In this document: piece by piece, positions 3,502-54,043 of the stretch
How positions within the stretch are numbered: the stretch's first letter is position 1
How the letters are laid out: each line of letters opens with the position of its first letter
Assembly: GCA_965249105.1 (NCBI GenBank)
Contig: OZ252219.1
Coordinates: 4,823,108-4,887,107 of the forward strand
Source: Vicinamibacterales bacterium
GTDB lineage: Bacteria; Acidobacteriota; Vicinamibacteria; Vicinamibacterales; UBA8438
Direction: 5' to 3'
Length of the DNA: 64,000 bases
The notes under the pieces: model-generated
What the model was told of the DNA's origin: nothing
The model's database searches: none
Seen by the model: the letters and a program-made list of their open reading frames with translations, nothing else
Translations under genes and position numbers: made by a program

Positions 3502-3740
3502 TGGCGGTGGGGGCAGTCTCGAGCGAACCCGTCTCGCACGTCGATAAGCGAATAAAAGACGAATATTGGATGGGTCCCTACTATGTCCCGCTTCAAACTC
3601 CTTGACCGGCTCAGGGGGAGTGTCTTGGCGGGTAGCGTCGGTACCTCCGCATCGGAGGATAAGTTGTTGTCCTCGCGCGAGTCGCATCCCGGGGTCATCC
3701 CGGATTAAAACTTGGGTCATGCCTAGCCGGCCGTCACCGG
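3502..3740. repeat. R-end copy A (core TGGCGG + about 210-bp R arm + 29-bp extension), no L arm
   Basis: Near-identical to 38716-38964; left flank differs from all L arms. Confidence 0.95.
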
Positions 3741-3752
3741 CGAGCAACCGGA

Positions 3753-3989
3753 ATGACAAGGGGATTTTTGTTTCTGACGGGAATTACCACAACACTGCTG
3801 CTCATATTCTTTATTGGCTATGAGTGGTCCGGCGGCCGCCTGGCGTTCTTTGGCCTTGAAGGTGATCAGGATCTTGAAGGTCCCATAGAGGCTCTCCTCT
3901 ATTGGATAACCTTGTTTTTTTGGATCGGAGTAATAGGAAGCCTGGTTTTGATTGGGAGAATGGGCGGTCGCAATTCCTCACAGTCTTGA
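3753..3989 (+). CDS. small two-TM membrane protein
   Basis: 78 aa with two hydrophobic segments; lower GC than flanks. Confidence 0.5.
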   Translation: MTRGFLFLTGITTTLLLIFFIGYEWSGGRLAFFGLEGDQDLEGPIEALLYWITLFFWIGVIGSLVLIGRMGGRNSSQS

Positions 3990-4018
3990 AAAGACTGAAG
4001 TTTCGATTTATTTCAAGG

Positions 4019-4459
4019 CTACTGCTCGAAGCTCACCACGATCTGCTGCAGTGCTGCCGAGCTGGTTGGGAGCTCGCTCTCCCCGGCGGGGACTGCGTTC
4101 GCCCACAGGATAAAGCTGAGAACGTCGACGTACTCCTGCCGGCTGAGGCTACCCGGTTCCTTGAGCGGCATGAGCTCCTCGACCTGGGAGAGCATAGTCT
4201 CGACGCTGACGCCCTGCCAGCGAGTGGTGAACTCCAGCCCGCGGAGTGGCGGGCCTCCGTCGATCGTGTTGCCAAGCAGGTCGTCGCGATGGCAGGCGCT
4301 GCACTGCTGCCGGTAGATCAGCTCGCCGCGACGGGCCTGGTCGAGAGCATAGATCCCCTCACGGGTAGTCGTCGCCTCCTGTGACCCGGAACTCGCCGAC
4401 CCGACCGCCGTGATGGCGGCGAGGCACGTGACAACGGACAAACGGCGCGGCATGGTCAC
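4019..4459 (-). CDS. periplasmic monoheme cytochrome c
   Basis: Signal peptide, CSACH, distal Met in MP motif. Confidence 0.85.
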   Translation of the reverse strand: MTMPRRLSVVTCLAAITAVGSASSGSQEATTTREGIYALDQARRGELIYRQQCSACHRDDLLGNTIDGGPPLRGLEFTTRWQGVSVETMLSQVEELMPLKEPGSLSRQEYVDVLSFILWANAVPAGESELPTSSAALQQIVVSFEQ

Positions 4460-4605
4460 GTGCGATCATAGCCCGCAGTGAGCTCGAAGCGCCGCGACGA
4501 TACGCGCCCTTGGCGGGTATGGCCGTCGGGGTTAAGATCGGGCTCCTGTCAGTGTGAGAAGCCTGCGAGGTCGGCCTTCGTGCGCAGGTGAAGAAAGGAC
4601 AGACG

Positions 4606-9571: not shown

Positions 9572-11953
9572 TCATCTCTCGCCGCCAGCCGCCCGGCGCA
9601 TCTGGAACGGTTCACTGTTGATGATCGCCGTCACCAACGACGAAAAGCGATAGTTGTCGGCCTCGGCCTCGCGGACAATCCGACGAACCGCCGGGGCGTC
9701 ATAGTGCTCGGTGCCGCGACCAATCGCGTACATCAGCAGCCTGTCGGCCAACGTGCGAACGAAGCGCTCGGGAGTCGCTACCAGGATACCCCGAAGATCG
9801 TGTATTCCGCTGAACGGTGTCCCGTCCGGCATCGCTCCGGACGCATCGATCGGCCGAAAGCCCACATCGACCTCCCTCCATTTTCCGGTCGCGTCAAACT
9901 GCTCGAGCGCGAAGCCAACAGGGTCGATCGTGGCATGGCACGACGCGCAGACAGGGCTGGCGCGATGCTGCGCCAGCAGCTCGCGCACTGTCAGCACGCG
10001 GCCATCGCTCTGCTTCTGCTCAGGTAGAGGTGGGACGTTTGCCGGCGGCGCCGGGGGCGGCGTCCCGAGCAGGTTATCGAGAATCCACTTCCCGCGAACC
10101 ACCGGCGATGTGCGCGTCGAGCGCGACGTGACGAGGAGCACGAGGCCCTTGCCCAAGAGGCCTCGCCGCGGACTGTCCTCACCGAGATGAACGCGGCGGA
10201 AGTCAGTCCCGACGATGTACGGAATGCCGTAGTGCTTGGCCAATCGTTCGTTGACGAACGTGTAGTCGGTGTCGAGGAGGTCGAGAACGCCGCGATCTTC
10301 ACGGATGATGCTGTCGAAGAACATCTCGATCTCGATTCGGAAGGCACGCCTCAACGCTTCATCGAAGTTCGGAAAGATGGGATCCGACGTCATGGCGGCA
10401 TCGAGGTTACGCACCCACAACCACTGCGCCGCGAAGCTGCTGGTCAGCGCGGAGGCACGCTCATCAGCCAACATCCGACGCACCTGCGCCTGCATCACGC
10501 CGGGCTGGTGCAGGCGACCTCCGGTAGCCAGATCCAGTAGCGCATCGTCTGGAATGCTGCTCCACAAAAAGAACGACAGCCGCGAGGCGAGCTCGAGGTC
10601 GCTGATCTGATAGACCTGGTTCGGCGGTAGGTCGTCGGGATCCTTCTCGATACGGAAAAGAAAATTTGGGTTGGCCAGGATGCCGCGGACGCCGCGCTGG
10701 ATACCGGCTTCGAAGTGTCCCTCTGCCCGACCCTCTGTGTACAGGCTCATCAGCGTGGACACATCGTGGTCGCTGACTGGCCGACGGTACGCCCGACGAG
10801 CCAGGGTCGAAAGAATGGTCCGGGCACATGGCTCTTCTTCTGAAGGCTGGTCCGGAACGCACACAAAGATCCGCTCCCGGTTGGCGGTGTGTCCGGCGCC
10901 GGCTACCGTCAGCGGTCCCTTGATCCAGACATCCGAGACGCCAGGCAACGAGAGATGAGTTTGCGGGGTACCTGGGCCCGCCCCCTGATCCCGCCCGAAG
11001 AAGAGCTTCCGGTCGCCCTCCGACAGCAGTTGCGGACTCTCGTTCACAAAGGCGGCGGTGATGTACCTCGGCCCCGCCTCGATCGGTAGCCGGACCACAT
11101 GGCTCTCAGCCGGTGGTCCGCCATACTCGTCGTCAGTTCGTTCCGGCGCGACGACGTCGAAGAGACCGATCCGCTCACCATCGAGTGCAAGCTCGATGTG
11201 TCCCGTCCCACCGCCGAGCACGTTGACCTCTATCTCGTAGTCGCCGTCGACCGGGAAGATGTGATCGATTCGTATCCCGCCTCGCGTTCCGAAGGGCAGT
11301 CCGTTGAAGTACACGCTCTGATCGAGATCTTCGTGCACTCGGAACTGCAGCTCGGCGGGGGGCGGAGCAGCCCCCACGGCGAGGCGGCTCACGCGGTTCG
11401 CCACAGACAGATAGACCTCCATGAGCGACTCCGTCAGCCGAAGCGAGGACGCGATGTTGTCAAAGGGCGCGTCGCCTCCACCCGAGTTGTCAATCGGAAG
11501 GAGGTTACTGAAGTCCATGTCGACCGCCAGGAGGTCGCGCACGGCGTGCCGGTATTCGGTCCGATTGAGGCGATGGAGGCTCTCCGTGCGCCCGGGATTC
11601 GGATCAATGGCCGCCGCCCGATCGAGCTCGGTCTCGAGCCATGACACGAACCCGTCGTAGACGACCTTCTCGGGGCGGGGTCGCCCTGGCGGAGGCATCA
11701 GACCGCCCCGCAGCTTTCGAACGACCTTCTCCCACAACGCCGAATGCTGACCGACTGCTGACAGGTCGGCGTCGCCGAGATTGAGGTTCCCGGAGGTGAG
11801 GCGAGCGTTATGACATCCCACGCAATACCGGTCGACGACCGCCCGCTGGGTCGCCGCATCGACGGCCTGTTCAGCCTCGGCTCCTCGCACAGAAGGCGCG
11901 GCGAGAACGAGCGCCAGGAAACACGCCGACGCGACGACTGCTTGGCTCTTCAT
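9572..11953 (-). CDS. DUF1592/DUF1588/DUF1587/DUF1595/DUF1585 cytochrome-c protein
   Basis: CVGCH, HRLNRTEY, LASRLSFFLWSSIPD, RTSPVVRGKW, CASCH; start refined to MKSQ. Confidence 0.9.
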   Translation of the reverse strand: MKSQAVVASACFLALVLAAPSVRGAEAEQAVDAATQRAVVDRYCVGCHNARLTSGNLNLGDADLSAVGQHSALWEKVVRKLRGGLMPPPGRPRPEKVVYDGFVSWLETELDRAAAIDPNPGRTESLHRLNRTEYRHAVRDLLAVDMDFSNLLPIDNSGGGDAPFDNIASSLRLTESLMEVYLSVANRVSRLAVGAAPPPAELQFRVHEDLDQSVYFNGLPFGTRGGIRIDHIFPVDGDYEIEVNVLGGGTGHIELALDGERIGLFDVVAPERTDDEYGGPPAESHVVRLPIEAGPRYITAAFVNESPQLLSEGDRKLFFGRDQGAGPGTPQTHLSLPGVSDVWIKGPLTVAGAGHTANRERIFVCVPDQPSEEEPCARTILSTLARRAYRRPVSDHDVSTLMSLYTEGRAEGHFEAGIQRGVRGILANPNFLFRIEKDPDDLPPNQVYQISDLELASRLSFFLWSSIPDDALLDLATGGRLHQPGVMQAQVRRMLADERASALTSSFAAQWLWVRNLDAAMTSDPIFPNFDEALRRAFRIEIEMFFDSIIREDRGVLDLLDTDYTFVNERLAKHYGIPYIVGTDFRRVHLGEDSPRRGLLGKGLVLLVTSRSTRTSPVVRGKWILDNLLGTPPPAPPANVPPLPEQKQSDGRVLTVRELLAQHRASPVCASCHATIDPVGFALEQFDATGKWREVDVGFRPIDASGAMPDGTPFSGIHDLRGILVATPERFVRTLADRLLMYAIGRGTEHYDAPAVRRIVREAEADNYRFSSLVTAIINSEPFQMRRAAGGER

Positions 11954-11961
11954 CGTGCCCC

Positions 11962-12999
11962 TCAACGCGTGTTCAGCCTGAACTCCTGCCCTGGCGCCGT
12001 GATGTGGTCCCCCGACGGCGGGATACGGTCGTCGACCAGCACGAGGCCCTTCGGTCTCGAATTGCCGGGCTTTATCCACGCGATCCGTGAGCCTGTGAAG
12101 ATATCGTCCGGGAACTTTGCTCCGGACAGCGTCAGCGAGTAGAACTGGGTCTCCTGAGGACCAACCTTCTGGACCTTCCAAACGGCCACGTCAGCCTTGC
12201 GGTCGTAATCGTAGCTGACGCCGCGGTAGCCCTCACCGGTTGCGGTCACCACCGAGCTCTCGCCTGGCAGCACGAGCGAGATAGTCACGTCCTCGGCCAC
12301 GAGGCCTTTCCCCGGAGTGCCGGTGTTGCCGACCGTCAGCGTATAGGTCGCCCCGTTGCCACGCTGCTCGCCCGGTCTAATGTGAGCGGTGAGCGGCACG
12401 AGCAGCCCCTCGAGCATGATGAAGTCTAGGATCTCCGCAAGCTGCGACTCGGGTAGCCGCTCTCTCGACCAGTTACCCATCCATGCCGGTGCGTGCTCGT
12501 ACACGATCCCCTTGAAGTGGTCGAGGTCGACCTCCGTGGCCACTCGACCAAGGTCGCGTCGAGGATGCAGCATTTCACCGCTATGACACTGCGTACATCC
12601 GTGGGCCGTCGCGACGCGTTGTCCTGCCGGTGCGGTCTCCGGCGGCGCGGGAACTCGCCAAGCTCCAGGTTCGTCCACCCGGTCGGTGGTGCGCAGGTAC
12701 GCGTAGATGTCTGCCAGCGTCTCGTCGCTTACCCCGGGGAATCGCGGCATCACGCCCCAGGGTTGACGAACGGCCCGTTTGAATTGCGAGAACGTCAGGC
12801 CGCGTCCGCCAGCCAGGTCGGGACCGAAGCCACCTTGTCCGCTGCGGCCATGACACAACCCACACAACGCACCACCTCCAGCTCCCATGAACGCGCGCTG
12901 TCCGTTGGCCGCATCACCTGCCGGGCTTGCAGACTGCGCTGCTGGGCCGGTGGATAGCAACGGCACCAGAATCAGCAAGATCGCAGTGTGCTTGGTCAT
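11962..12999 (-). CDS. diheme cytochrome c with C-terminal Ig-like domain
   Basis: Signal peptide MTKHTAILL; CGLCH and CTQCH. Confidence 0.85.
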   Translation of the reverse strand: MTKHTAILLILVPLLSTGPAAQSASPAGDAANGQRAFMGAGGGALCGLCHGRSGQGGFGPDLAGGRGLTFSQFKRAVRQPWGVMPRFPGVSDETLADIYAYLRTTDRVDEPGAWRVPAPPETAPAGQRVATAHGCTQCHSGEMLHPRRDLGRVATEVDLDHFKGIVYEHAPAWMGNWSRERLPESQLAEILDFIMLEGLLVPLTAHIRPGEQRGNGATYTLTVGNTGTPGKGLVAEDVTISLVLPGESSVVTATGEGYRGVSYDYDRKADVAVWKVQKVGPQETQFYSLTLSGAKFPDDIFTGSRIAWIKPGNSRPKGLVLVDDRIPPSGDHITAPGQEFRLNTR

Positions 13000-13055
13000 C
13001 GTTTTTCCCACACCGAACGTACCATCACGAGACCGGTCGCGGGTCCCCCGGGCCA

Positions 13056-14435
13056 CTAGAGCTCGGCGAGCCCGTCCGGGTGACCAAACTCCTTGAGCTG
13101 ACCGGTACTGTCGCCGAGCTGCTCTGCCGGTACCCCGGCCTTGCCGAGCAATGTGATGAGCAGGTTGGCCTCAGGCACGTAGTCGTCGATCGGATACGCG
13201 AGGTGCCGGCCGCCCTTGATCCGGCCACCGCCGCCACCGATCACGATGTTCGGCAGGTCGATGATCGCATGCTGGTTAGGATTGCCCAACCCGCCGCCGA
13301 ACAACAGCACGATGTTGTCGAGCAGCGACCCCCCATCACCGTCGGGTGTCGCCTGCAGTTTCTCGAGGTAGTAGGACACCAGTTGGACGTGATACGCGTC
13401 GATCTTCGCTACGTCGTCGATCTTCTGTGGGTTGTTCCCATGGTGGGAGCTTGCGTGGTGCTGGCCCACCACGCCGATGTCAGGGTAGGTCCGTGGACTC
13501 AGTTCCCTCGCCATCTGGAACGTGATGACCCTCGTGACGTCGGCTTGATATGCCGCGACCTGTAAATCGAACATCAGCTTGACGTGCTCGTCGAACGTCT
13601 GGGGAATATCCGCCGGACGAGGCGGCAGCTCCAACGTTGGATCATCGGTGTGGGCTTCCGCCCGCTGGATACGCGCCTCGATGTCTCGGACGGATTCGAG
13701 ATACTGAGTCAGTACTCGACGGTCTCCGCTGCCTAGTTGCGTGCGCAGTTCCGAGATCCGATCCGTGACCGCGTCCAGAATGCTGCTACTAGTCTCGAGG
13801 TGACGACGCTGTTCCTCAGGGGTTGCGCCGTCCCCGAACAACCGCTGGAATACGACGCGGGGATGAACCTCCATCGGCAGTGGCGTCGTCGGGTCTTTCC
13901 ACGACACGGTGTTCTGATAGATACAGCTGTACCCCGCGTCGCAGTTCCCTACCATCTGCTCGTTCTGCTCGGTGGCCAACTCGAGCGATGGCAGGACCGT
14001 CTGCTGCCCCAGCACGTCGGCGGCGATTTGGTCGGCGCTGACACCCGCGCGCACGTCGGCGCCCTCGGTGAATTTTGCGTGGGTGCCGGTGATCCATGCT
14101 GCGCTCGCTCTGGAGTGGGGGCCCGGCGGTGATCCCATGGCCTCAGCCTGCAGGTTGGCGAGGCCGCTCACCACGACCAGCTTGTTCCGAAACGGCTCCA
14201 GCGGCTTCAACGATGGCGTGAGATCGAACTGCTCGCCGACGCTCCCCGGCGTCCAGTACTCTCGAATGAAACCGTTCGGCGTGTAGATGAACCCCAACCG
14301 GCGAATGGGAGCCGCTGCCGACTTCGCGACAGCCGTGAACGCCGGCACCATCGCGTCGAGGAGCGGCAGCGTCAGCGAGACTCCCACGCCGCGAAGAAAA
14401 GTCCGACGCGGTAGCGCTCGTCGTGTGACTATCAT
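13056..14435 (-). CDS. DUF1552 family protein (second copy)
   Basis: RRTFLRGVG, SLELATE, GNCDAGYSC. Confidence 0.9.
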   Translation of the reverse strand: MIVTRRALPRRTFLRGVGVSLTLPLLDAMVPAFTAVAKSAAAPIRRLGFIYTPNGFIREYWTPGSVGEQFDLTPSLKPLEPFRNKLVVVSGLANLQAEAMGSPPGPHSRASAAWITGTHAKFTEGADVRAGVSADQIAADVLGQQTVLPSLELATEQNEQMVGNCDAGYSCIYQNTVSWKDPTTPLPMEVHPRVVFQRLFGDGATPEEQRRHLETSSSILDAVTDRISELRTQLGSGDRRVLTQYLESVRDIEARIQRAEAHTDDPTLELPPRPADIPQTFDEHVKLMFDLQVAAYQADVTRVITFQMARELSPRTYPDIGVVGQHHASSHHGNNPQKIDDVAKIDAYHVQLVSYYLEKLQATPDGDGGSLLDNIVLLFGGGLGNPNQHAIIDLPNIVIGGGGGRIKGGRHLAYPIDDYVPEANLLITLLGKAGVPAEQLGDSTGQLKEFGHPDGLAEL

Positions 14436-14455
14436 GGCTTCACCTATCGCGTCCG

Positions 14456-32518: not shown

Positions 32519-32551
32519 ACGGACGTGTCGACCGTCTGGGTTAGTGGCGTA

Positions 32552-39906: not shown

Positions 39907-39934
39907 CGACCATCACGCCCACGGCGGGGCGCAG

Positions 39935-40987: not shown

Positions 40988-41012
40988 CGCCCCTATATGT
41001 CAAGACAGTCGT

Positions 41013-42880: not shown

Positions 42881-43106
42881 CGTGCTATGAACAAGTTGTC
42901 AAGGCTCTCGGCGCCGTTGGGTCGTCCAATCGAGGGACAGATACGGGCTCAGGCTCGGTGGAGCCGGCCCATCGTGCGTCATCCGGACTCATACCCGAGG
43001 AGCGGAGGGTGCCAGGCGGAAGTACGTCGAGCTGTCTTCGACGCGAAGAGCTCAGGACAACGGTGGGCATGGCCTCCTCTCCGGTTGGAGCCGGAGCCTC
43101 AGGTTT

Positions 43107-43510
43107 CTACGCGGCGATCGACTCGTCCCTCCACACGTGGTCAGCATCGAACGCCGTGCGGTTCTTGACGACGGCGAACGCGTAGTGCAGCAGTTTGGTC
43201 ATGCAGGCCCCGATCGCCTGCATCGGAGGCAAGGGACGCGTGACTCGCTGCGTGAGGCGCTCGTAGTGGGCTTTGAGGCGCGGGTTATGGCGGAGGGACG
43301 ACAGCGTGGCCATGTAGACCACGGCGCGCAGCTGGGCCCGCCCGCGCTTGGTGATCGGCGTCCGTCCAGCGTGCTGGCCGCTTTCCCGTCTCGAGGGCTG
43401 CAGGCCGGCCAGCTTCACCAACTGCCGGCCATGCTGGTATCTGTCGAACGGGCCAATCTCAGCGATCAGCCCGGCGATGGTGATCCACCCGATCCCCGGC
43501 AGCGTGGCGA
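43107..43510 (-). pseudogene. IS110-family transposase C-terminal fragment
   Basis: LPGIGWITIAGLIAEIG, AGLxPSRRESG, ITKRGR; 5' part cut off at the L-end repeat. Confidence 0.9.
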
Positions 43511-43617
43511 CTGGAGCGCGCACAGTGAGGTCGATCAAAAGTTTTAATCCGGGAGGCACTTGCAAAACCCTGCGCGTAGAGAAGTTTTTTGGCGGCTTGC
43601 GCACGGTGCGGGCCACA

Positions 43618-43965
43618 TCACACAGGCGTGAGCTGACGAAGCAGGCGCTCAGTCATCCGCAGCGACAACGTCTCCATTTCCACAACGATTCGGTCTAGCT
43701 GTCGGCCGTTCTCGATCCAGTCCCGGACACGCTCGGCTTGCTGCTCGGTGAGACGGACGGTGACGGTCTTGCCGCGGACCTTGCGGGTCCACTGATAGTA
43801 CGGCCCGTGTAGCTGCGGGGGCGTCGCTTGGCAGCGGCAGTTCGGCTTGCCGCACGGCATGAAACGTTGCACGAGGCTGCCACGTCGAAGCAATCCCACC
43901 TCAGCGACGGTGCGCTTGAGCGCGTCGTAGCGCTGCGTGTCGGTTGTTGGGTCACGGGTGGGCAT
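43618..43965 (-). CDS. DUF6788-like passenger protein
   Basis: RGSL...CGKPNCRC...HGPYYQWT...GKT. Confidence 0.8.
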   Translation of the reverse strand: MPTRDPTTDTQRYDALKRTVAEVGLLRRGSLVQRFMPCGKPNCRCQATPPQLHGPYYQWTRKVRGKTVTVRLTEQQAERVRDWIENGRQLDRIVVEMETLSLRMTERLLRQLTPV

Positions 43966-44028
43966 GTCGTGCCATTCGGTCTAGCAGTTGTTATACTGCT
44001 AGACCTGGCCCCAGGAGTCAAGAAGAAA

Positions 44029-45168
44029 ATGAGCCGTCTCCGAGAGTGCTTCGCACCACACTGGCTGTCCATTCAGACCGCACTCTTTCCATGGCTGGAG
44101 GAAGAGCTGGGACCACTCACGGAGAAACAGCAGCAGTTCGTGCAGACCTTGGAGGTCATCCGGGTCGAGGACCACATTCCCCGACGCGTCCGCATGCCCG
44201 GCCGACCTCGCAAGGATCGCGCGGCCGTCGCCCGCGCGTTTGTCGCCAAGGCCGTCTACGACCTGCCGACGACACGCAGGCTGCTCGATCGGCTGGCCAC
44301 CGATCGACCCTTGCGCCGGATCTGCGGCTGGGAGACTAGGCGCCAGGTCCCGAGCGAATCCTTGTTCTCACACGCCTTCGACGAGTTTGCGACCACGCAG
44401 TTGCCTCTGCGCGTGCACGAGACGGTCATCCAGAAGACGCATCACGACCGATTGGTCGGTCATCTCTCGCGAGACTCCACCGCGATTGCGGCACGCGAGA
44501 AGCCCGCCACGAAGGACAAGCCGCCCGCGCCCTCGCAGCGGAAGCGGGGACGACCGAAGAAGGGAGAGGAGCGCCCTCACGAGCCCACGCGTCTGCAGCG
44601 GCAGGGCACCATGACCAAGCCGGAGATGCTCGCTGATCTCCCGACGGCCTGCGATGTCGGGACGAAAAAGAACAGCAAGGGCTACAAGGAAACCTGGGTC
44701 GGCTACAAGCTGCATATCGATGTGGCCGATGGCCAGATCCCCATCAGCTGCCTACTGACCACTGCCTCCCTTCATGACAGCCAGGCCGCTATTCCGCTCG
44801 CAACCCTGTCCGCCGAGCGGAGCACCAATCTGTACGACGTGATGGACGCCGCCTACGATGCGCAGGAGATTCGGGCACACAGCCGTTCGCTGAACCACGT
44901 TCCGCTGATCGACATCAACACGCGCCGCAACACGGCGCTGAAGGAAGAACGCCAAGCGGAAGCTCGGCGCCGACAGGTGCTTGGCTTCCAGCTTCCGGAG
45001 GACGTTCGCTACAACGAACGCACGGCCGTTGAGCGGGTCAATGGCCGCCTCAAGGACGAATTCGGCGGTCGCCATGTCCGGGTCCGCGGCCCGGCGAAGG
45101 TGATGTGCCACTGCATGTTCGGCGTGCTCGCACTCACCGCTGACCAACTCATGCGCCTCGTCACGTAG
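44029..45168 (+). CDS. DDE transposase (YREK motif)
   Basis: RDSTAI, GYKLH, DAAYD, YNERTAVERVNGRLK; start refined to MSRLRE. Confidence 0.95.
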   Translation: MSRLRECFAPHWLSIQTALFPWLEEELGPLTEKQQQFVQTLEVIRVEDHIPRRVRMPGRPRKDRAAVARAFVAKAVYDLPTTRRLLDRLATDRPLRRICGWETRRQVPSESLFSHAFDEFATTQLPLRVHETVIQKTHHDRLVGHLSRDSTAIAAREKPATKDKPPAPSQRKRGRPKKGEERPHEPTRLQRQGTMTKPEMLADLPTACDVGTKKNSKGYKETWVGYKLHIDVADGQIPISCLLTTASLHDSQAAIPLATLSAERSTNLYDVMDAAYDAQEIRAHSRSLNHVPLIDINTRRNTALKEERQAEARRRQVLGFQLPEDVRYNERTAVERVNGRLKDEFGGRHVRVRGPAKVMCHCMFGVLALTADQLMRLVT

Positions 45169-45990
45169 CCATCGGTGACGTGATGACCTCGATCCACCCA
45201 GCTGCCTACGCGCAGAAGGCGGCAGCTCTTGCCAGACCCTCGCCCAATGCCCGGGCGGGCCTGCGTCTCCTCATGAATCGGTGCCTCGATCCCGGTGCCC
45301 TGGGCCCGAGTGACCAGTTTGCACCCAAACCCTGACGCTTGTTCCACTGTCGGCCAGGAGTTTTGCAAGTGCCTCCCGGGATAATCCGGGATCATCCGGG
45401 ATGACCCCGGGATGCGACTCGCGCGGGCGCAACGATTGACGGGGAGGGCGACAGAATTGGGCCGTGCCGAGGCCCGATCCGCCGTCCGTGTGAGGGGTGT
45501 CCCGGGAGGCTCTCACGTGCGCCCCACCCGGACCACGGAAACCGGCCCGCGAGACGATCGCCCGCATACCGGCGCCACCTCGCTCCAGACGTGTCTCGTC
45601 TTCTCGGCGCCGCGCCCGCGACCGCTGAAATCGCCTGAATCCAACGAGGAAATCGGGGGCAACCCTCGAGCGATCCCGAAGTGCGAGCATCGGCAGGACT
45701 GGGTGGCGGAGGGGGCAGTCTCGCGCGAACCCGTCTCGCACGTCGCCAAGCGAATAAAAGACGAATATTTGATGGGTCCCTACTATGTCCCGCTTCAAAC
45801 TCCTTGACCGGCTCAGGGGGAGTGTCTTGGCGGGCAGCGTCGGTACCTCCGCATCGGAGGAGAAGTTGTTGTCCTCGCGCGAGTCGCATCCCGGGGTCAT
45901 CCCGGATTATCCCGGCTTATCCCGGGAGGCACTTGCAAAACCCTGCGCGTAGAGAAGTTTTTTGGCGGCTTGCGCACGGTGCGGGCCACA

Positions 45991-46338
45991 TCACACAGGC
46001 GTGAGCTGACGAAGCAGGCGCTCAGTCATCCGCAGCGACAACGTCTCCATTTCCACAACGATTCGGTCTAGCTGTCGGCCGTTCTCGATCCAGTCCCGGA
46101 CACGCTCGGCTTGCTGCTCGGTGAGACGGACGGTGACGGTCTTGCCGCGGACCTTGCGGGTCCACTGATAGTACGGCCCGTGTAGCTGCGGGGGCGTCGC
46201 TTGGCAGCGGCAGTTCGGCTTGCCGCACGGCATGAAACGTTGCACGAGGCTGCCACGTCGAAGCAATCCCACCTCAGCGACGGTGCGCTTGAGCGCGTCG
46301 TAGCGCTGCGTGTCGGTTGTTGGGTCACGGGTGGGCAT
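45991..46338 (-). CDS. DUF6788-like passenger protein
   Basis: Identical to 43618-43965. Confidence 0.8.
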   Translation of the reverse strand: MPTRDPTTDTQRYDALKRTVAEVGLLRRGSLVQRFMPCGKPNCRCQATPPQLHGPYYQWTRKVRGKTVTVRLTEQQAERVRDWIENGRQLDRIVVEMETLSLRMTERLLRQLTPV

Positions 46339-46401
46339 GTCGTGCCATTCGGTCTAGCAGTTGTTATACTGCTAGACCTGGCCCCAGGAGTCAAGAAGAA
46401 A

Positions 46402-47541
46402 ATGAGCCGTCTCCGAGAGTGCTTCGCACCACACTGGCTGTCCATTCAGACCGCACTCTTTCCATGGCTGGAGGAAGAGCTGGGACCACTCACGGAGAAA
46501 CAGCAGCAGTTCGTGCAGACCTTGGAGGTCATCCGGGTCGAGGACCACATTCCCCGACGCGTCCGCATGCCCGGCCGACCTCGCAAGGATCGCGCGGCCG
46601 TCGCCCGCGCGTTTGTCGCCAAGGCCGTCTACGACCTGCCGACGACACGCAGGCTGCTCGATCGGCTGGCCACCGATCGACCCTTGCGCCGGATCTGCGG
46701 CTGGGAGACTAGGCGCCAGGTCCCGAGCGAATCCTTGTTCTCACACGCCTTCGACGAGTTTGCGACCACGCAGTTGCCTCTGCGCGTGCACGAGACGGTC
46801 ATCCAGAAGACGCATCACGACCGATTGGTCGGTCATCTCTCGCGAGACTCCACCGCGATTGCGGCACGCGAGAAGCCCGCCACGAAGGACAAGCCGCCCG
46901 CGCCCTCGCAGCGGAAGCGGGGACGACCGAAGAAGGGAGAGGAGCGCCCTCACGAGCCCACGCGTCTGCAGCGGCAGGGCACCATGACCAAGCCGGAGAT
47001 GCTCGCTGATCTCCCGACGGCCTGCGATGTCGGGACGAAAAAGAACAGCAAGGGCTACAAGGAAACCTGGGTCGGCTACAAGCTGCATATCGATGTGGCC
47101 GATGGCCAGATCCCCATCAGCTGCCTACTGACCGCTGCCTCCCTTCATGACAGCCAGGCCGCTATTCCGCTCGCAACCCTGTCCGCCGAGCGGAGCACCA
47201 ATCTGTACGACGTGATGGACGCCGCCTACGATGCGCAGGAGATTCGGGCACACAGCCGTTCGCTGAACCACGTTCCGCTGATCGACATCAACACGCGCCG
47301 CAACACGGCGCTGAAGGAAGAACGCCAAGCGGAAGCTCGGCGCCGACAGGTGCTTGGCTTCCAGCTTCCGGAGGACGTTCGCTACAACGAACGCACGGCC
47401 GTTGAGCGGGTCAATGGCCGCCTCAAGGACGAATTCGGCGGTCGCCATGTCCGGGTCCGCGGCCCGGCGAAGGTGATGTGCCACTGCATGTTCGGCGTGC
47501 TCGCACTCACCGCTGACCAACTCATGCGCCTCGTCACGTAG
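46402..47541 (+). CDS. DDE transposase
   Basis: Differs from copy 1 by one residue (LLTAAS vs LLTTAS). Confidence 0.95.
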   Translation: MSRLRECFAPHWLSIQTALFPWLEEELGPLTEKQQQFVQTLEVIRVEDHIPRRVRMPGRPRKDRAAVARAFVAKAVYDLPTTRRLLDRLATDRPLRRICGWETRRQVPSESLFSHAFDEFATTQLPLRVHETVIQKTHHDRLVGHLSRDSTAIAAREKPATKDKPPAPSQRKRGRPKKGEERPHEPTRLQRQGTMTKPEMLADLPTACDVGTKKNSKGYKETWVGYKLHIDVADGQIPISCLLTAASLHDSQAAIPLATLSAERSTNLYDVMDAAYDAQEIRAHSRSLNHVPLIDINTRRNTALKEERQAEARRRQVLGFQLPEDVRYNERTAVERVNGRLKDEFGGRHVRVRGPAKVMCHCMFGVLALTADQLMRLVT

Positions 47542-47791
47542 CCATCGGTGACGTGATGACCTCGATCCACCCAGCTGCCTACGCGCAGAAGGCGGCAGCT
47601 CTTGCCAGACCCTCGCCCAATGCCCGGGCGGGCCTGCGTCTCCTCATGAATCGGTGCCTCGATCCCGGTGCCCTGGGCCCGAGTGACCAGTTTGCACCCA
47701 AACCCTGACGCTTGTTCCACTGTCGGCCAGGAGTTTTGCAAGTGCCTCCCGGATTAAAACTTTTGATCGAGCTCAGCGGATTATGTTCCGC

Positions 47792-47851
47792 GAGCAAGGC
47801 ATCGAAAAATATCTTGGCTCCGGCATGATCCGGGGCATCGGCCCGGTCTAC
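47792..47851 (+). pseudogene. RecD2-like helicase internal fragment
   Basis: My translation: EQGIEKYLGSGMIRGIGPVY. Confidence 0.7.
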
Positions 47852-47883
47852 CCGAGCTGCCCTATCGCCAATGGGTCATCAGT
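47851..47883 (+). pseudogene. IS91-type transposase motif fragment
   Basis: My translation: PELPYRQWVIS; only 11 codons. Confidence 0.45.
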
Positions 47884-47888
47884 AGGCG

Positions 47889-48011
47889 AAGTACACAATG
47901 ACCAGTAACACGGGGGAAATCCTGGTCATGCTCCTCGCTCCGCTCATCGGGATGCCGCTGCCGCCGCTCCCTTTGCAGATCTTGTGGATCAACCTCGTGA
48001 CCGATGGGTTG
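47889..48011 (+). pseudogene. cation-transporting P-type ATPase TM5-TM6 fragment
   Basis: KYTMTSNTGEILVMLLAPLIGMPLPPLPLQILWINLVTDGL. Confidence 0.85.
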
Positions 48012-48064
48012 GGGTCGAGAGCTCCGGGCGTGCGGTTCGGCCACGCGTGGACGGCGGGGCCGGC

Positions 48065-48841
48065 TCAGAAGTCGACGGTGATGCCGATCTGCACCCCGAA
48101 CAACGTGGCCAGTGACCGCGTCGGCTCGAACGTTACCCCGGTCTCATCGCGCTGGAGCTCTCCCCGCGTCAAATAGTCGACCTCGCCGCCGGTGAGATAC
48201 CGGAGCCCGATGTCGAGACCCAGGCGAGCCTCGCTCCCCGACACGAGCCCGATCGTGACGCCGCCTCCCGCACCGAAGCTCGGCGCGAAGTCGCCCAGAT
48301 GCGTGGTCGCCGCACCGCCACCTTCATTGCCCAGGTCGACAGACGTTCGCGTATACACGTGACTGAACCCGAGGAGCCCCTCGGCGTACGGCCGTACCCG
48401 GCCGGCGGGAGGCTGGACCCGCACGAGCGCATGGGTCCGAATGAAGTTGTTGGTGGTCCCGACGTCGCTAAACACCTCGGGGACGGCCGGAAACAGCGCG
48501 ATGCGGCGGGTCTCCGTGCCGTAGCGCAGGTAGTCGATGGTCGCTCCCACGGAGACGGGGGTCTGGCCTACGCGGGCCGTGAAGTCGACGGCCGCCCCCG
48601 GGGTCGCGCCGACCTTCTTCCCGAACGGCCCGATCGGGACCCCGACCAGGAACTTTGGGCTGAACTGGAAGCGCAGCAGTTCCGGGACCTCGACCACGGA
48701 TGATTCCGGCCGAGGAAGCTGCCCGGGCGGCGGTGCCGGTGGGCTGGCGGACGCCGTCTGCGCAGCGGCAGTTGATGTGCCTGCGAGCCACAATCCACAC
48801 GCGACGGCGATGGCTCCGCGACTGACAGCTCGTCTCTGCAT
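48065..48841 (-). CDS. outer-membrane beta-barrel protein
   Basis: Signal peptide, amphipathic strands, VRPYAEG, terminal Phe (GITVDF); start refined to MQRRA. Confidence 0.75.
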   Translation of the reverse strand: MQRRAVSRGAIAVACGLWLAGTSTAAAQTASASPPAPPPGQLPRPESSVVEVPELLRFQFSPKFLVGVPIGPFGKKVGATPGAAVDFTARVGQTPVSVGATIDYLRYGTETRRIALFPAVPEVFSDVGTTNNFIRTHALVRVQPPAGRVRPYAEGLLGFSHVYTRTSVDLGNEGGGAATTHLGDFAPSFGAGGGVTIGLVSGSEARLGLDIGLRYLTGGEVDYLTRGELQRDETGVTFEPTRSLATLFGVQIGITVDF

Positions 48842-49091
48842 CGTTGCCTGCCTCCGTAGTTCGAATGGACGCATTATCTGATCATGAGAAGCGGCAGTCT
48901 CCCACGATATAGAGGAGCAAACCTCGTGCCGGTCTCGTGAGAGCATCCAAGTCGTTTGTGGAGAGTGGGTTGCGCTCCGGAGGCACGCATTGACGGCACC
49001 GTGGCGTCGACCTGATCCGTGGACAATCCACCACAGCTAGTGAACTTTTTTGGAGACGCGCTACCCATGCTGCCGGGCGTTTCCGTAGCAC

Positions 49092-49270
49092 TTGACCGAC
49101 GTGGACGCGAAGCTGACCGCGCTGCAGGCGATGGACCTCGCGGCCCTGCGCCGCGAATGGTGCCGCTGTCATCGGGCTCCGCCGCCGCGGCTCAGCCGCG
49201 ACCTGCTGCTCCGGGACCTCGCCTATACGCTCCAAGAAGACGCGTATGGCGGCGTGAGCAAGGCGATCCG
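49092..49270 (+). pseudogene. DUF2924-family fragment
   Basis: LAALRREW...PPPRLSRDLLLRDLAYTLQEDAYGG; C-terminal half missing. Confidence 0.75.
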
Positions 49271-49539
49271 CACGGCTCCGGACCCTGGCCAAGGCCGTCG
49301 CCGAGACCGGCCGCGTCGCCCCCGAGAATCGACTCGGCCAGCGCATCAATCAGTTGGGTGGTTGCGCGTGTGGCCAGGAGCCGTTGCGGTACAGCGTGAT
49401 GGCGACGTCGACGTTTCGGCGTAGCGCGGCCTGAACCGCAGGCCAGTTCTTCTCGGAGCGAACCAGTGTCTTCCACGAGTACAAGTGCTTCCGCTTGTGA
49501 AAGTCGGAGTGGGTGCTCGGAACCACTGGTCGATCAAGA

Positions 49540-50144
49540 GTTTGATCCGAGATATTCCGGAACTATCCGAAACACGTGAGACGTGCGATGCTCGTGGGCA
49601 CAACACCTGACGGGGAGGGCGACAGGATTGGGCCGCGCCGATCCCGATCCGACGTCCGCCTTCTGCGGGAGGGGTGTCCGAGAAAGCTCTCACGCAGCGC
49701 CCAACCCGGACCACGGAACCCGGCTCGCGAGACGATCACGCGGACACCAGCCGCCACCTCGCCCCAGGCGCGACTCACCTCCCCGGCGCCGTGCCCGTGC
49801 CCGCTGAAATCGCCTGAATCCAACGAGGAAATCGAGGGCAACCCTCGAGCGATCCCGAAGTGCGAGCATCGGCAGGACTGGGTGGCGGAGGGGGCAGTCT
49901 CGCGCGAACCCGTCTCGCACGTCGCCAAGCGAATAAAAGACGAATATTTGATGGGTCCCTACTATGTCCCGCTTCACACTCCTTGACCGGCTCAGGGGGA
50001 GTGTCTTGGCGGGCAGCGTCGGTACCTCCGCATCGGAGGATAAGTTGTTGTCCTCGCGCGAGTCGCATCCCGGGGTCATCCCGGATGATCCCGGCTTATC
50101 CCGGATTAAAACTTTTGATCGAGCTCAGCGGATTATGTTCCGCG
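49540..50144. repeat. L-core-R unit D (core 49883), left terminal repeat degenerate
   Basis: R arm near-identical to unit C including the 32-bp extension; L arm similar to 53858-54037. Confidence 0.9.
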
Positions 50145-50618
50145 CTTTGATGACATCGAGAAAGTGATCCGATCATGAATGCGGATTGGCCGACTGCCAG
50201 ATGCATACTCTGTGGCTCCGGAGAAGACATCACAACGGAACATATAATTCCCGACTGCCTCGCCGGAAAACTCGTAGCGAATTTCCTGTGCAAAGACTGC
50301 AATTCAAGGCTTGGCCATGGTGCCGAAAGCGCTGTCAGGAACGACCCAAAGGTTCGGCTATTAATTGAACGCCTAGTCGGTGAACAACCTCACCTCGCCA
50401 ATAAATTACAGAAGCGGCTACCGTACATAGGCCGCAGTGAGCAAGGCGAAATCCCTGGATACATGCGAGACGGAAGGTTCGTTCCGAAGGAACAACCGCT
50501 GGACGATGGATCGTTTATCTTTCCGGAGGACCTATCTCTATATCATTCATCATGAGGCACTTGCAAAACCCTGCGCGTAGAGAAGTTTTTTGGCGGCTTG
50601 CGCACGGTGCGGGCCACA

Positions 50619-50966
50619 TCACACAGGCGTGAGCTGACGAAGCAGGCGCTCAGTCATCCGCAGCGACAACGTCTCCATTTCCACAACGATTCGGTCTAGC
50701 TGTCGGCCGTTCTCGATCCAGTCCCGGACACGCTCGGCTTGCTGCTCGGTGAGACGGACGGTGACGGTCTTGCCGCGGACCTTGCGGGTCCACTGATAGT
50801 ACGGCCCGTGTAGCTGCGGGGGCGTCGCTTGGCAGCGGCAGTTCGGCTTGCCGCACGGCATGAAACGTTGCACGAGGCTGCCACGTCGAAGCAATCCCAC
50901 CTCAGCGACGGTGCGCTTGAGCGCGTCGTAGCGCTGCGTGTCGGTTGTTGGGTCACGGGTGGGCAT
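50619..50966 (-). CDS. DUF6788-like passenger protein
   Basis: Identical to the other copies. Confidence 0.8.
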   Translation of the reverse strand: MPTRDPTTDTQRYDALKRTVAEVGLLRRGSLVQRFMPCGKPNCRCQATPPQLHGPYYQWTRKVRGKTVTVRLTEQQAERVRDWIENGRQLDRIVVEMETLSLRMTERLLRQLTPV

Positions 50967-51029
50967 GTCGTGCCATTCGGTCTAGCAGTTGTTATACTGC
51001 TAGACCTGGCCCCAGGAGTCAAGAAGAAA

Positions 51030-52169
51030 ATGAGCCGTCTCCGAGAGTGCTTCGCACCACACTGGCTGTCCATTCAGACCGCACTCTTTCCATGGCTGGA
51101 GGAAGAGCTGGGACCACTCACGGAGAAACAGCAGCAGTTCGTGCAGACCTTGGAGGTCATCCGGGTCGAGGACCACATTCCCCGACGCGTCCGCATGCCC
51201 GGCCGACCTCGCAAGGATCGCGCGGCCGTCGCCCGCGCGTTTGTCGCCAAGGCCGTCTACGACCTGCCGACGACACGCAGGCTGCTCGATCGGCTGGCCA
51301 CCGATCGACCCTTGCGCCGGATCTGCGGCTGGGAGACTAGGCGCCAGGTCCCGAGCGAATCCTTGTTCTCACACGCCTTCGACGAGTTTGCGACCACGCA
51401 GTTGCCTCTGCGCGTGCACGAGACGGTCATCCAGAAGACGCATCACGACCGATTGGTCGGTCATCTCTCGCGAGACTCCACCGCGATTGCGGCACGCGAG
51501 AAGCCCGCCACGAAGGACAAGCCGCCCGCGCCCTCGCAGCGGAAGCGGGGACGACCGAAGAAGGGAGAGGAGCGCCCTCACGAGCCCACGCGTCTGCAGC
51601 GGCAGGGCACCATGACCAAGCCGGAGATGCTCGCTGATCTCCCGACGGCCTGCGATGTCGGGACGAAAAAGAACAGCAAGGGCTACAAGGAAACCTGGGT
51701 CGGCTACAAGCTGCATATCGATGTGGCCGATGGCCAGATCCCCATCAGCTGCCTACTGACCGCTGCCTCCCTTCATGACAGCCAGGCCGCTATTCCGCTC
51801 GCAACCCTGTCCGCCGAGCGGAGCACCAATCTGTACGACGTGATGGACGCCGCCTACGATGCGCAGGAGATTCGGGCACACAGCCGTTCGCTGAACCACG
51901 TTCCGCTGATCGACATCAACACGCGCCGCAACACGGCGCTGAAGGAAGAACGCCAAGCGGAAGCTCGGCGCCGACAGGTGCTTGGCTTCCAGCTTCCGGA
52001 GGACGTTCGCTACAACGAACGCACGGCCGTTGAGCGGGTCAATGGCCGCCTCAAGGACGAATTCGGCGGTCGCCATGTCCGGGTCCGCGGCCCGGCGAAG
52101 GTGATGTGCCACTGCATGTTCGGCGTGCTCGCACTCACCGCTGACCAACTCATGCGCCTCGTCACGTAG
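51030..52169 (+). CDS. DDE transposase
   Basis: Same protein as copy 2. Confidence 0.95.
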   Translation: MSRLRECFAPHWLSIQTALFPWLEEELGPLTEKQQQFVQTLEVIRVEDHIPRRVRMPGRPRKDRAAVARAFVAKAVYDLPTTRRLLDRLATDRPLRRICGWETRRQVPSESLFSHAFDEFATTQLPLRVHETVIQKTHHDRLVGHLSRDSTAIAAREKPATKDKPPAPSQRKRGRPKKGEERPHEPTRLQRQGTMTKPEMLADLPTACDVGTKKNSKGYKETWVGYKLHIDVADGQIPISCLLTAASLHDSQAAIPLATLSAERSTNLYDVMDAAYDAQEIRAHSRSLNHVPLIDINTRRNTALKEERQAEARRRQVLGFQLPEDVRYNERTAVERVNGRLKDEFGGRHVRVRGPAKVMCHCMFGVLALTADQLMRLVT

Positions 52170-52991
52170 CCATCGGTGACGTGATGACCTCGATCCACCC
52201 AGCTGCCTACGCGCAGAAGGCGGCAGCTCTTGCCAGACCCTCGCCCAATGCCCGGGCGGGCCTGCGTCTCCTCATGAATCGGTGCCTCGATCCCGGTGCC
52301 CTGGGCCCGAGTGACCAGTTTGCACCCAAACCCTGACGCTTGTTCCACTGTCGGCCAGGAGTTTTGCAAGTGCCTCTCATGTTAAAAAAATGTCCAAGCG
52401 GGCGGGCAGAGAACTCTTCGGGGTTACGCCTGATCAACTCAGATGCCTACCTTCCGGCGGCTCAGTTGAAGCGGCATCCGGGCTTTTTATTACAAACTGG
52501 ACTCTAGATTCAATTGAACCTGACCTCAGCGGACCAGAGATTGACCCGATAGTTCCGGCGACAATTGCGTTCGAGTTTCTCGCATTGCATTGCGGTATTA
52601 AAATCTATGAAAACCCGCCGCAGTTTGCGCTAATTCGGCGTCAGCTCATTGATGGCAAGTTGTCTGGAGATGAGATTCGTGTGCAGCGCCTGGAGGCGCA
52701 GAATAGGCAGCTCTTCCACGGACTCGTATTTGAAGGCAACAGCCCAGGAGCGCGAGTCCAGATACGGCTTTTTGGCTCTCTGGCTTTTCGCGTGGAATTT
52801 AACCGTTGGTCCATCAGCGGCACTCGTTGTGGTTACACTCACGACTTAGTGTCTGAAGATGACGGCTTTTGGGTCGATGCATAGATTGGTGGTCGAGGAG
52901 GAGGCGATAATTTCGTTCCATTACCGTGACACTCAACACGCTAGATGTTAAAAACACCTAGATTTATTATATGTTTTTAGATCAACGGTCT

Positions 52992-53105
52992 CTCCTCAAG
53001 GGGGACGTGTTCACGCCTGACGTGATCGAGAACTGGCTCGCCTACAAACGGGAGAACGAAGTCGACGCCATTCGCCTGCGGCCGCATCCGTGGGAATTCG
53101 CGCTG
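52992..53105 (+). pseudogene. glnA: glutamine synthetase type I 3'-terminal fragment
   Basis: My translation: [38 protein letters not shown]. Confidence 0.85.
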
Positions 53106-53359
53106 GGATGACCCCGGGATGCGACTCGCGCGGGCGCAACGACTGACGGGGAGGGCGACAGAATTGGGCCGTGCCGAGGCCCGATCCGCCGTCCGTGGGA
53201 GGGGTGTCCCGGGAGGCTCTCACGTGCGCCCCACCCGGACCACGGAACCCGGCTCGCGAGACGATCGCCCGCATACCGGCGCCACCTCGCTCCAGACGTG
53301 TCTCGTCTTCTCGGCGCCGCGCCCGCGACCGTCGAAATCGCCCGGCATCCACAGAAAAA
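53105..53359. repeat. partial L arm E (no outer iterons, no core)
   Basis: Near-identical to the L arm of unit B. Confidence 0.9.
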
Positions 53360-53395
53360 CGCCAGCTCGCCCACAGATTTTTCTGACGAACCAAA

Positions 53396-54043
53396 GTTTT
53401 AATCCGGGATCAGCCGGGATCAGCCGGGATGACCCCGGGATGCGACTCTCGCGGTCGCAACGACGTACGGGGACGCGGCGGATCCAGCGTGGCGCGTTGC
53501 GCTCGACGACGAGGCGTTCGTCGTCGATGCCCGGGTCGGTGTACGGTCGGTCGTGCAGCCCGGCGTGGATCACGCGCACCAGCTTGTGGGCGGTGGCCAG
53601 GATCCATCCCGGTAGCCGACGCTCTGTGGGCGCAACGACTGACGCCGAGTCCAGCGCCGGGACGCCACGTTGCACCGGCCGGTGCAGGTCCAGCGCGCCG
53701 CGCGTCATGGTCAGTTTCTGTGACGTGGGCTCGGCCGCCGCGCCGCGAGAAGTTCTTGCAGCGGCATATTCCGGGACTTGCCGGGCTCCATCCCGGAATC
53801 CGACGCTCCGCGGACCCGACGACTGACAGGGGTCAGTCGTACATGGCTCTCTCAAAACCCCGGACCACCGAACCTGGCTCGCGAGACGATCACGCGGACA
53901 CCGGCCGCCACCTCGCCCCCGGCGCGACTCACCTCCCCGGCGCCGCGCCCGTGACCGCTGAAATCGCCTGAATCCAACGAGGAAATCGGGGGGCACCCCT
54001 CGAGCGATCCCGAAGTGCGAGCATCGGCAGGACTGGGTGGCGG
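53396..54043. repeat. L arm F: terminal repeat 53396-53470, unrelated insert, L body 53858-54037 abutting the tRNA CCA end
   Basis: GTTTTAATCCGGGAT(CAGCCGGGAT)2GACCCCGGG; ...GCATCGGCAGGACTGGG|TGGCGG. Confidence 0.9.
53474..53610 (-). pseudogene. IS110-family transposase extreme C-terminal fragment
   Basis: ATAHKLVRVIHAGLHDRPYTDPGIDDERLVVERNAPRWIRR. Confidence 0.6.

Follow-up and report, generated by a model that had tools for sequence, protein, structure and literature searches.

The DNA analyzed here is a 64,000-nt stretch of a Vicinamibacterales genome (contig OZ252219.1; 63% G+C), hereafter the window, whose positions supply all coordinates below. An intact tRNA-Ser(tga) gene was identified by ARAGORN and Rfam on the minus strand (54038–54127), with its CCA end at 54038. 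Directly upstream of it lies serS (54187–55476, minus strand), recognized from Pfam and from comparison with relatives as a conserved chromosomal anchor. The region on the other side of the tRNA gene, 3502–54037, is a series of four cassettes of 35.2, 7.0, 4.2 and 4.2 kb, numbered 1 to 4 in the order in which contig OZ252219.1 was assembled, with related junction sequences at their ends.

Five copies of the hexamer TGGCGG (at 3502, 38716, 45704, 49883 and 54038) mark these junctions, J1–J5. By itself TGGCGG is little informative, being common in a window of such G+C content (91 copies versus ~62 expected). Each of the five cited copies, however, lies inside a long homologous context, and their alignment gave an ordered series of left arms (L) and right arms (R): flank-core-R at J1, L-core-R at J2, J3 and J4, and L-core-tRNA-Ser at J5. 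With slashes marking the edges of the hexamer, J1 (core and direct repeat at 3502–3511, TGGCGGTGGG) reads GAAGGC/TGGCGG/TGGGGGCAGTCTCG, where the left-hand side is unique flank (wider left flank, GCGCGAAGGC) and the right-hand side is R. J2–J4 follow the pattern GGACTGGG/TGGCGG/(T/A)GGGGGCAGTCTCG. Specifically, J2 (core 38716–38725, TGGCGGTGGG) aligned as GGGACTGGG/TGGCGG/TGGGGGCAGTCTCG, and J3 and J4 (cores 45704–45713 and 49883–49892, both TGGCGGAGGG) aligned as AGGACTGGG/TGGCGG/AGGGGGCAGTCTCG. At J5, L is followed by TGGCGG/AGGGACTGGGATTCG, the 3' end of tRNA-Ser(tga), whose last 10 nt form the core (alignment, AGGACTGGG/TGGCGG/AGGGACTGGGATTCGAACC, tRNA on the right). A direct repeat of the tRNA 3' end, TGGCGG(T/A)GGG, is present at 5/5 junctions, and the proximal tRNA is intact. 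The series shows an element bounded by attachment (att)-type sites at the 3' end of its target gene. An initial annotation of this DNA had listed the same five junctions and cassette lengths, and the alignment confirmed both.

That annotation also placed the crossover within TGGCGG. The identity common to J3, J4 and the tRNA is longer, comprising the 10 nt TGGCGGAGGG. Yet the flanking polymorphisms support the narrower interval. The base after TGGCGG (position 7) is T in J1 and J2 and A in J3–J5, always following the right-hand partner, and the base before it (position –1) is C in J1 and G elsewhere, always following the left-hand partner. Because these two positions segregate with opposite sides, strand exchange inside TGGCGG would be the simplest and best reading. 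Dyad symmetry at the core amounted to 12/24 matches, versus a mean maximum of 12.1 for shuffled sequences, and nothing extended rose above the shuffles.

The L-core-R units are 560–650 bp long, forming a module of ~600 bp. R arms (~205–230 nt) are 94–98% identical pairwise, and the cargo next to them is unrelated. Each R consists of a ~135-nt body plus a terminal segment, the head, in inverted orientation. Two subtypes, R1/R2 (98% identical to each other) and R3/R4, differ in core position 7 and in their outer extensions. All arms lie on the plus strand. The R arm of cassette 1, with body, inverted head and an outer extension of type A, spans 3512–3742 (alignment, repeat and head searches); those of cassettes 2 and 4 span 38726–38964 (alignment) and 49893–50127 (alignment, head search). 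The R arm of cassette 3 (45714–47775; repeat search) has its head split by an insertion sequence (IS copy 2, 45926–47748).

L arms are more variable (343–648 nt; 66–94% identical) and mosaic. They are built of an outer head of ~85 nt, a middle of ~85 nt in the short form or ~390 nt in the long form found at J5, and a core-proximal block of ~185 nt that is kept in all variants. Cassette 1 ends in a short-form L (38373–38715; alignment, head search) with head, short middle and proximal block. In the L of cassette 2 (43530–45703; repeat and head searches) the head is split by IS copy 1 (43553–45375), and in that of cassette 3 (49532–49882; alignment, head search) the head is diverged. The L of cassette 4 (53388–54037; alignment) is the long variant, whose middle holds, on the minus strand, the remnant of an IS110-type transposase C-terminus. 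An extra partial L, comprising head and middle and lacking a core, lies at 53086–53359 (repeat and head searches).

Several other features of the arms were noted. A conserved frame of ~95 aa (..LPGWILATAHKLVRVIHAGLHDRPYTDP..) occupies the long L in the window (53476–53790, minus strand) and in two of the 20 loci used for comparison (L001–L020), namely L002 (6147–6431) and L006 (2355–2660). By eye this frame resembles the C-terminal end of IS110-family transposases; it had no Pfam match. IS110 fragments also adjoin L heads, at 43107–43530 in the window and in L013. Rfam, run at the gathering threshold and at a permissive E-value, found no family in L or R. In the J2-type L, a G+C hairpin followed by a T-run, just downstream of the tRNA and on its strand, looked by eye like a terminator supplied by L, but a consensus terminator scan made no call and the candidate was rejected.

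The least ordinary feature of the array is the heads. These are inverted repeats of ~85 nt at the outer ends of L and R, laid out as AAGTTTTAAT, then 2–4 copies of the palindrome ATCCNGGAT spaced 10–11 nt apart, then GACCCCGGGATGCGACTCGCGCG. The palindromic 9-mers (four, at helical spacing) stand in inverted orientation at ~200 and ~330 nt from the core. A profile search detected 10 heads in the 64-kb window, all at outer L or R ends within the array and 0 elsewhere. This arrangement would suit sites bound by an arm-binding domain, or by an accessory protein that wraps the attP site.

We asked what the cassettes encode, using a Pfam scan that covered all open reading frames (ORFs) supported by G+C content at third codon positions (GC3) and further candidate ORFs of ~90 aa or more. 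Among the ORFs scanned across and beside the array, none had a domain of a tyrosine or serine site-specific recombinase. Likewise, tblastn searches of the window with the integrase, primase and AlpA sequences of an element found in relatives (L005, see below) revealed no remnant of any of them. The Pfam scan and tblastn together showed no integration, excision or transfer genes inside the element, and no conjugation genes were seen in the array. The earlier statement that no cassette encodes an intact recombinase thus holds for integrases. It does not hold for transposases, as cassette 2 carries an intact IS110-family gene and each of the three IS copies a DDE transposase gene.

Cassette 1 (cargo, 3743–38372; Pfam) contains ~25 metabolic and transport genes and no mobility gene. 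Encoded here are DUF1552/DUF1592 pairs, ankyrin proteins, an outer-membrane barrel, an MFS transporter, c-type cytochromes and a homogentisate/fumarylacetoacetate pathway. Paralogous pairs at 9572–16873 and 30233–32986 (two DUF1552 plus DUF1592/PSD modules, two ankyrin-repeat proteins and two DUF6152 proteins) adjoin the homogentisate/fumarylacetoacetate degradation cluster, and the cassette looks like an island for uptake and catabolism of aromatic compounds. Cassette 2 (38965–43529) holds a DUF6933 gene, an ORF-less group II intron (39935–40750, minus strand; Rfam D1–D4 and D5/D6), the intact IS110-family transposase gene (41013–42098, minus strand; Pfam), an rve fragment that is a piece of an IS3-type gene, and an IS110 C-terminal fragment. 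Cassette 3 (47776–49531) has small ORFs and a gene for a predicted secreted protein of 293 aa with no Pfam match. Cassette 4 (50128–53085) has an HNH_5 endonuclease gene (50175–50555), IS copy 3 (50554–52376) and a 164-aa ORF. Without IS copies and arms, unique DNA comes to ~1.8 kb in cassette 3 and ~1.1 kb in cassette 4. Much of cassettes 2–4 is mobile-element debris.

The three IS copies are 1823 bp long, belong to the IS5 family and are 100% identical. Each encodes a 446-aa transposase (DUF772, DDE_Tnp_1) and has the terminal repeat GAGGCACTTGCAAAAC and 4-bp target duplications. Copies 1 and 2 hit CCGG in palindromic sites of both heads flanking J3, in the same orientation, so that the L-core-R unit between them is enclosed as in a composite transposon.

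Comparison with other strains and species showed that the module recurs and that its surroundings change. L001, an ENA contig with an identical SerS, matches the window at 99.86% identity for 10.1 kb, from the serS side through the tRNA into L, of which it shares the first 180 nt. Past this point L001 has an unrelated tRNA-proximal cassette, which includes a radical-SAM gene as well as insertions of IS21 and IS3. Strains nearly identical to that of the window are represented in ENA assemblies ERZ26167216 and ERZ25766727. In L013, another ENA contig, the cargo of cassette 2 is present at 99.9% identity, but the cassette upstream of it is another one, as is the combination of head and body. Relative to the window, the first gene of cassette 2 has an additional 318 nt in L013, the group II intron is absent, and the IS110 gene lies elsewhere in opposite orientation. 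Because the intron is missing from cargo that is otherwise 99.9% identical, it was gained or lost recently. A further partial tRNA 3' end (TGGTACGCCCGGCAGGATTCGAACCTGCGACC; L013 8812–8850) lies between an R arm and an IS110 fragment, an att-site relic inside an array. Cargo thus varies between near-identical strains and between assemblies. Since the proximal cassette of L001 and the neighbors of the cassette-2 cargo in L013 both differ, the sequences suggest that the cassettes are, or recently were, mobile.

L-core-R and L-core-tRNA junctions recur in independent assemblies (L001, L003, L013), so these junction types are not artifacts of the source assembly. L003 has a complete L/TGGCGG/R with no tRNA nearby and several tandem heads before it. 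In L006, TGGCGG links a long L to the final ~37 nt of another tRNA (AGAGAGTGGGATTCGAACCCAC), and the sequence common to both tRNA types reduces to TGGCGGAG. Short-read contigs of three relatives (L014, L018, L019) stop right after tRNA-Ser, as expected at a repeat-rich, variable locus.

The L/R module is present in at least four other Vicinamibacterales species. When one genome per species was scanned for a 20-mer of the head, this sequence was found solely in four Vicinamibacterales metagenome-assembled genomes. No match was obtained in JGI metagenomes (L-end and head patterns), in IMG/VR (patterns for head, L end, R and the arm R' described below), or in PLSDB plasmids and INPHARED phages (BLAST with the whole L-core-R unit). 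The family seems confined to Vicinamibacterales in the ENA and GenBank long-read assemblies.

An integrase gene does occur at this kind of junction in relatives. In L005 the order is L/CGGCGG AGAGAGTG/R', the L arm running into CGGCGGAGAGAGTG and then into an AT-rich arm, R'. About 190 nt beyond lies a gene for a 411-aa tyrosine integrase of the P4 type (Arm-DNA-bind_3, Phage_int_M, Phage_integrase), followed by a Toprim/DUF3631 primase gene and then an AlpA-type gene. The same element is found in L007 and L020, with integrases that are 97% identical. Homology between the three loci begins at the core, and their left flanks are, respectively, an L arm, a glyoxalase-gene flank and the end of an island of another type, discussed below, that crosses over in the anticodon loop; the core of L020 is degenerate (TGCCGAGGG). 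This shared starting point means that the integrase-bearing element uses the same tRNA 3'-end position. From the L005 junction, it can apparently share an array with an L/R cassette. A GTGTCC-like motif looked common to R, L and R' but is too short for significance and serves as no more than a lead.

Collectively, these data suggest that 3502–54037 is probably a tandem array of four integrase-less islands accreted at the extreme 3' end of tRNA-Ser(tga). Accretion would have occurred by conservative site-specific recombination at the CCA, discriminator base and first acceptor-stem bases of the tRNA gene. Each island would once have been a circle with attP = L-core-R, which could recombine with flank-core-tRNA, or with an existing L-core-tRNA or flank-core-R, to yield the observed series. 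Repeated integration of such circles at the tRNA-Ser 3' end is expected to give precisely this junction pattern, as the initial annotation pointed out. The enzyme would be supplied in trans, from a gene outside the window. The best candidate may be a heterobivalent tyrosine integrase of the P4/Arm-DNA-bind_3 kind, as in the sibling element with AlpA and primase, and the ~600-bp module would provide core sites along with binding sites, presumably in the heads, for the arm domain or accessory proteins. The comparisons favor a tyrosine integrase in trans over a serine recombinase, because the integrase-bearing element appears to use the same tRNA 3'-end position and to be able to lie in an array with L/R. 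The array is partly decayed. IS elements have inserted into it, one L copy is partial, and the L arms are mosaic, which homologous recombination would have caused. In this form, the original idea of trans-mobilized cassettes is plausible and partly supported, though with a different enzyme.

A number of observations weigh against this account. L001 departs from the window at a point 180 nt into L, off the core, and this difference points to homologous recombination over integrase action. R' and R are only 45% identical, sharing just the first ~12–18 nt, and R' is devoid of CCGGGAT heads; the integrase-bearing element may merely share the target and not act on L-core-R. That element is known from its core and integrase side only, not from its far end or its link to a tRNA. 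The 64-kb window contains no integrase and no remnant of the L005-type enzyme, and circular or empty-site forms were not observed. Moreover, relatives of the L005-type integrase at 84–86% identity reside inside virB4 genes, so target choice in this integrase family is labile. In L008–L012 (~9850–11250 in each), from several genomes, these integrases, each with its own AT-rich arm, come after codon ~345 of virB4/trbE of conjugative elements and look like a lineage targeting a type IV secretion gene; they are uninformative about the tRNA-Ser site.

Could the whole region have arrived in one step? In this scenario, ~50 kb (a large island or plasmid) entered the tRNA-Ser 3' end once, already holding copies of L-core-R that resemble MITEs (miniature inverted-repeat transposable elements) bounded by terminal inverted repeats (TIRs). 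The internal junctions would be transposed or duplicated units, and the 'cassettes' simply the DNA between copies. The ~85-nt inverted heads that bound L-core-R are what such a model predicts, and behavior outside the window is also in its favor. In L002, heads bound a unit without an att core; heads occur singly or in tandem in L003, L006 and L013, and as tandem or solitary copies in L004. Moreover, heads adjoin genes cut at arbitrary points, as transposon ends would (a merR-like gene in L004, IS110 at window 43530 and L013 9107, and the first gene of cassette 2). Yet no target-site duplication could be defined at the heads or units, and 10/10 heads in the window are at outer L/R ends in the array, with none elsewhere in the 64 kb. 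The existence of two R subtypes (R1/R2 and R3/R4) fits separate arrivals better, and the cassette-2 cargo has other neighbors in L013. We consider a single entry unlikely, but it is the main rival to the array of separate arrivals.

A more speculative idea combines transposition with integration. The units share some features of MITEs: ~85-nt inverted heads, a length of 560–650 bp, and an IS110 remnant as the sole ORF-like stretch. L-core-R might be a portable attachment site, that is, a non-autonomous MITE-like unit whose heads move or capture adjacent DNA and whose core serves as attP for a tRNA-Ser-specific integrase. We regard this as doubtful. If true, two copies flanking any DNA would create an excisable circle able to enter tRNA-Ser, a kilobase-scale gene-capture system analogous to the integron and independent of any gene in cis. 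It would also explain the sharp symmetric edges of the module, the arbitrary intragenic cuts in the cargo and the presence of ordinary metabolic genes in a 35-kb 'cassette'.

The initial annotation favored mobilization by a large serine recombinase. Under that model, an enzyme encoded elsewhere would make a 2-bp crossover inside TGGCGG. Confinement of the crossover to at most 6–7 bp, with no requirement for identity on the left side, is in keeping with such an enzyme. However, no serine integrase is linked to the array in the window or lies beside a junction in any of the 20 loci examined, and dyad symmetry at the core is no stronger than in shuffled sequence. The attP of a serine integrase is ~50 bp, and the ~600 bp of conserved arms exceed the need of these enzymes. 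The sole recombinase seen at this position in relatives is the P4-type tyrosine integrase, whose element ends at the same junction position. Hence, although tandem arrays at ssrA of Dehalococcoides are the work of serine integrases (PMC3146451), their involvement here appears improbable.

Very improbable, in our estimate, is movement of the units by an IS110-family (DEDD, bridge-RNA-guided) recombinase, with a guide RNA encoded in L or R. Cassette 2 does carry an intact IS110-family gene, and remnants occur inside long L and beside L heads in several genomes. But the shared core is 8–10 nt rather than 2, and to our knowledge IS110 elements do not have inverted heads of 85 nt. The remnants are inconsistently oriented and truncated, and the intact IS110, which is moved and flipped in L013, shows ordinary IS behavior. 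The lack of an Rfam match in L/R also argues against a guide RNA, a weak point given that Rfam is equally silent beside the intact IS110. Finally, collapse or misjoining of repeats in the metagenome assembly is hardly credible: despite the three identical IS copies and several near-identical arms in the array, and the breaks in relatives' short-read contigs, the same junction classes appear in independent assemblies from other samples and species, and the arms differ by enough substitutions to be distinguished.

How does the array compare with known systems? The initial annotation knew of no description, but three kinds of element precede it. The first are cis-mobilizable elements (CIMEs), att-flanked islands that lack integration and transfer genes, whether lost or never possessed, and become stacked as newcomers enter resident att sites (PMC5704250). 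The array resembles CIMEs and the products of tandem accretion of integrative elements (ICEs and IMEs) at tRNA genes, for example the ICESt1/ICESt3-related elements of Streptococcus thermophilus (PMC5704250), in being att-flanked, devoid of integration and transfer genes, and stacked at the 3' end of the target. It differs from CIMEs in that no element with a cognate integrase occurs in the same array within 64 kb. In addition, its cassettes share only a discrete ~600-bp module with sharp symmetric edges, not the ragged remnant of a decayed integrative and conjugative element (ICE), and the host is an acidobacterium.

Islands at ssrA in Dehalococcoides are the second precedent and are structurally close to the array; 15 of these are without an integration module and have been proposed to be CIMEs (PMC3146451). 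They too form tandem series downstream of a tRNA-like gene, are bounded by short 3'-end repeats and differ between strains (PMC3146451). There, the repeat is 20 bp and a serine integrase gene, DsiB, stands beside attL in most islands (PMC3146451), whereas our array has an 8–10-nt repeat, long conserved arms and a candidate tyrosine integrase. Third, the tycheposons of Prochlorococcus are tyrosine-recombinase elements that target tRNA genes including tRNA-Ser(tga), push older elements inward, leave partial tRNAs and remnants, and carry metabolic cargo (bioRxiv 10.1101/2020.12.28.424599). Their att repeats, in contrast, are partial tRNAs of ~40 nt, they normally have their own integrase, and no conserved junction module with TIRs has been described for them (bioRxiv 10.1101/2020.12.28.424599).

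P4-like and CP4-57-like islands are reminiscent of the sibling element (L005, L007, L020), which has int, alpA and a primase gene and sits at a tRNA 3' end. None of those genes is carried by the window's cassettes, whose R arm shows no relationship past the first ~12–18 nt. More generally, a tRNA-targeting island with a tyrosine integrase would have the integrase gene by an att site; in the window no att site has one, and such genes were seen only in the sibling elements elsewhere. The label 'integron-like' from the initial annotation is useful as an analogy only. As in integrons, whose mobilizer is a tyrosine recombinase encoded outside the cassette, recombinase-less cassettes are arranged in order with one recombination site each. 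But the array lacks intI, attI and attC alike, and so is not an integron. There is also no Pc promoter at the array head, the cassettes are multigene blocks of 4–35 kb, and the anchor is a tRNA gene. The attC site of integrons is an imperfect palindrome of 57–141 bp, whereas in the 560–650-bp units described here only the outer ~85 nt are inverted and the core is without dyad. In short, tandem accretion of integrase-less islands has already been described, and the head-bounded junction module is the unusual part.

An island of a different type borders the array on the left. A partial copy of the tRNA-Ser 3' half, reaching from the CCA end to the anticodon loop, lies at 1196–1262 (minus strand), outside the span covered by the initial annotation. 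The copy is 59–66 nt long, and the interval is 96% identical to 54037–54103. The remnant that follows (1263–3501, plus strand; Pfam) has as its right end the unique flank of J1. It consists of an arm (1263–1391) with two ACGAGGAGTG repeats and a gene for a hybrid histidine kinase/response regulator (1582–3396; Pfam). Homologs of the arm are found in L015 (85.6%) and L020 (75.6%), each adjoining a partial tRNA. In L015, from a relative whose SerS is 91% identical, the same arm and partial tRNA close a 6.5-kb island without L/R sequences. On this basis, 1196–3501 represents a separate, older island type, integrated by crossover in the anticodon loop.

Sites of this type (window 1196–1391; L015 17800–17994; L020 8905–9086) have a 59–66-nt repeat of the tRNA 3' half ending TTTTCAAG/TGC, then an arm with two ACGAGGAGTG. 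Two species have such a site at tRNA-Ser; in L020 it is at a fragment of another, Leu-like tRNA. In both the window and L020, elements using the CCA end have the anticodon-loop island on their distal side. Outside the array and just past the partial tRNA, at ~925–1047 (minus strand), there is a weak remnant of a tyrosine integrase, namely its last ~40 residues with the motif LHDIRRTAVRNMVR (Pfam E = 9e-4, below the cut-off). It suggests that an even older island, now decayed, lies further to the left.

The Vicinamibacterales, an abundant group of soil Acidobacteriota, have barely been cultured, and how they exchange genes is little understood. The serS-tRNA-Ser locus is a hot spot where blocks of 4–35 kb are stacked, including a complete metabolic gene cluster, and where near-identical strains differ. 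Each block comes with a DNA module of ~600 bp and lacks genes that would move it. If the array is merely decayed, it still illustrates accretion clearly and with good resolution in a phylum that is new for it and poorly studied. As a compact attP/attB pair, the module could also be of use as a tool. If the module suffices for mobilization by an integrase in trans, it would represent a minimal hitch-hiking design, with a bearing on how many integrase-less islands are still mobile.

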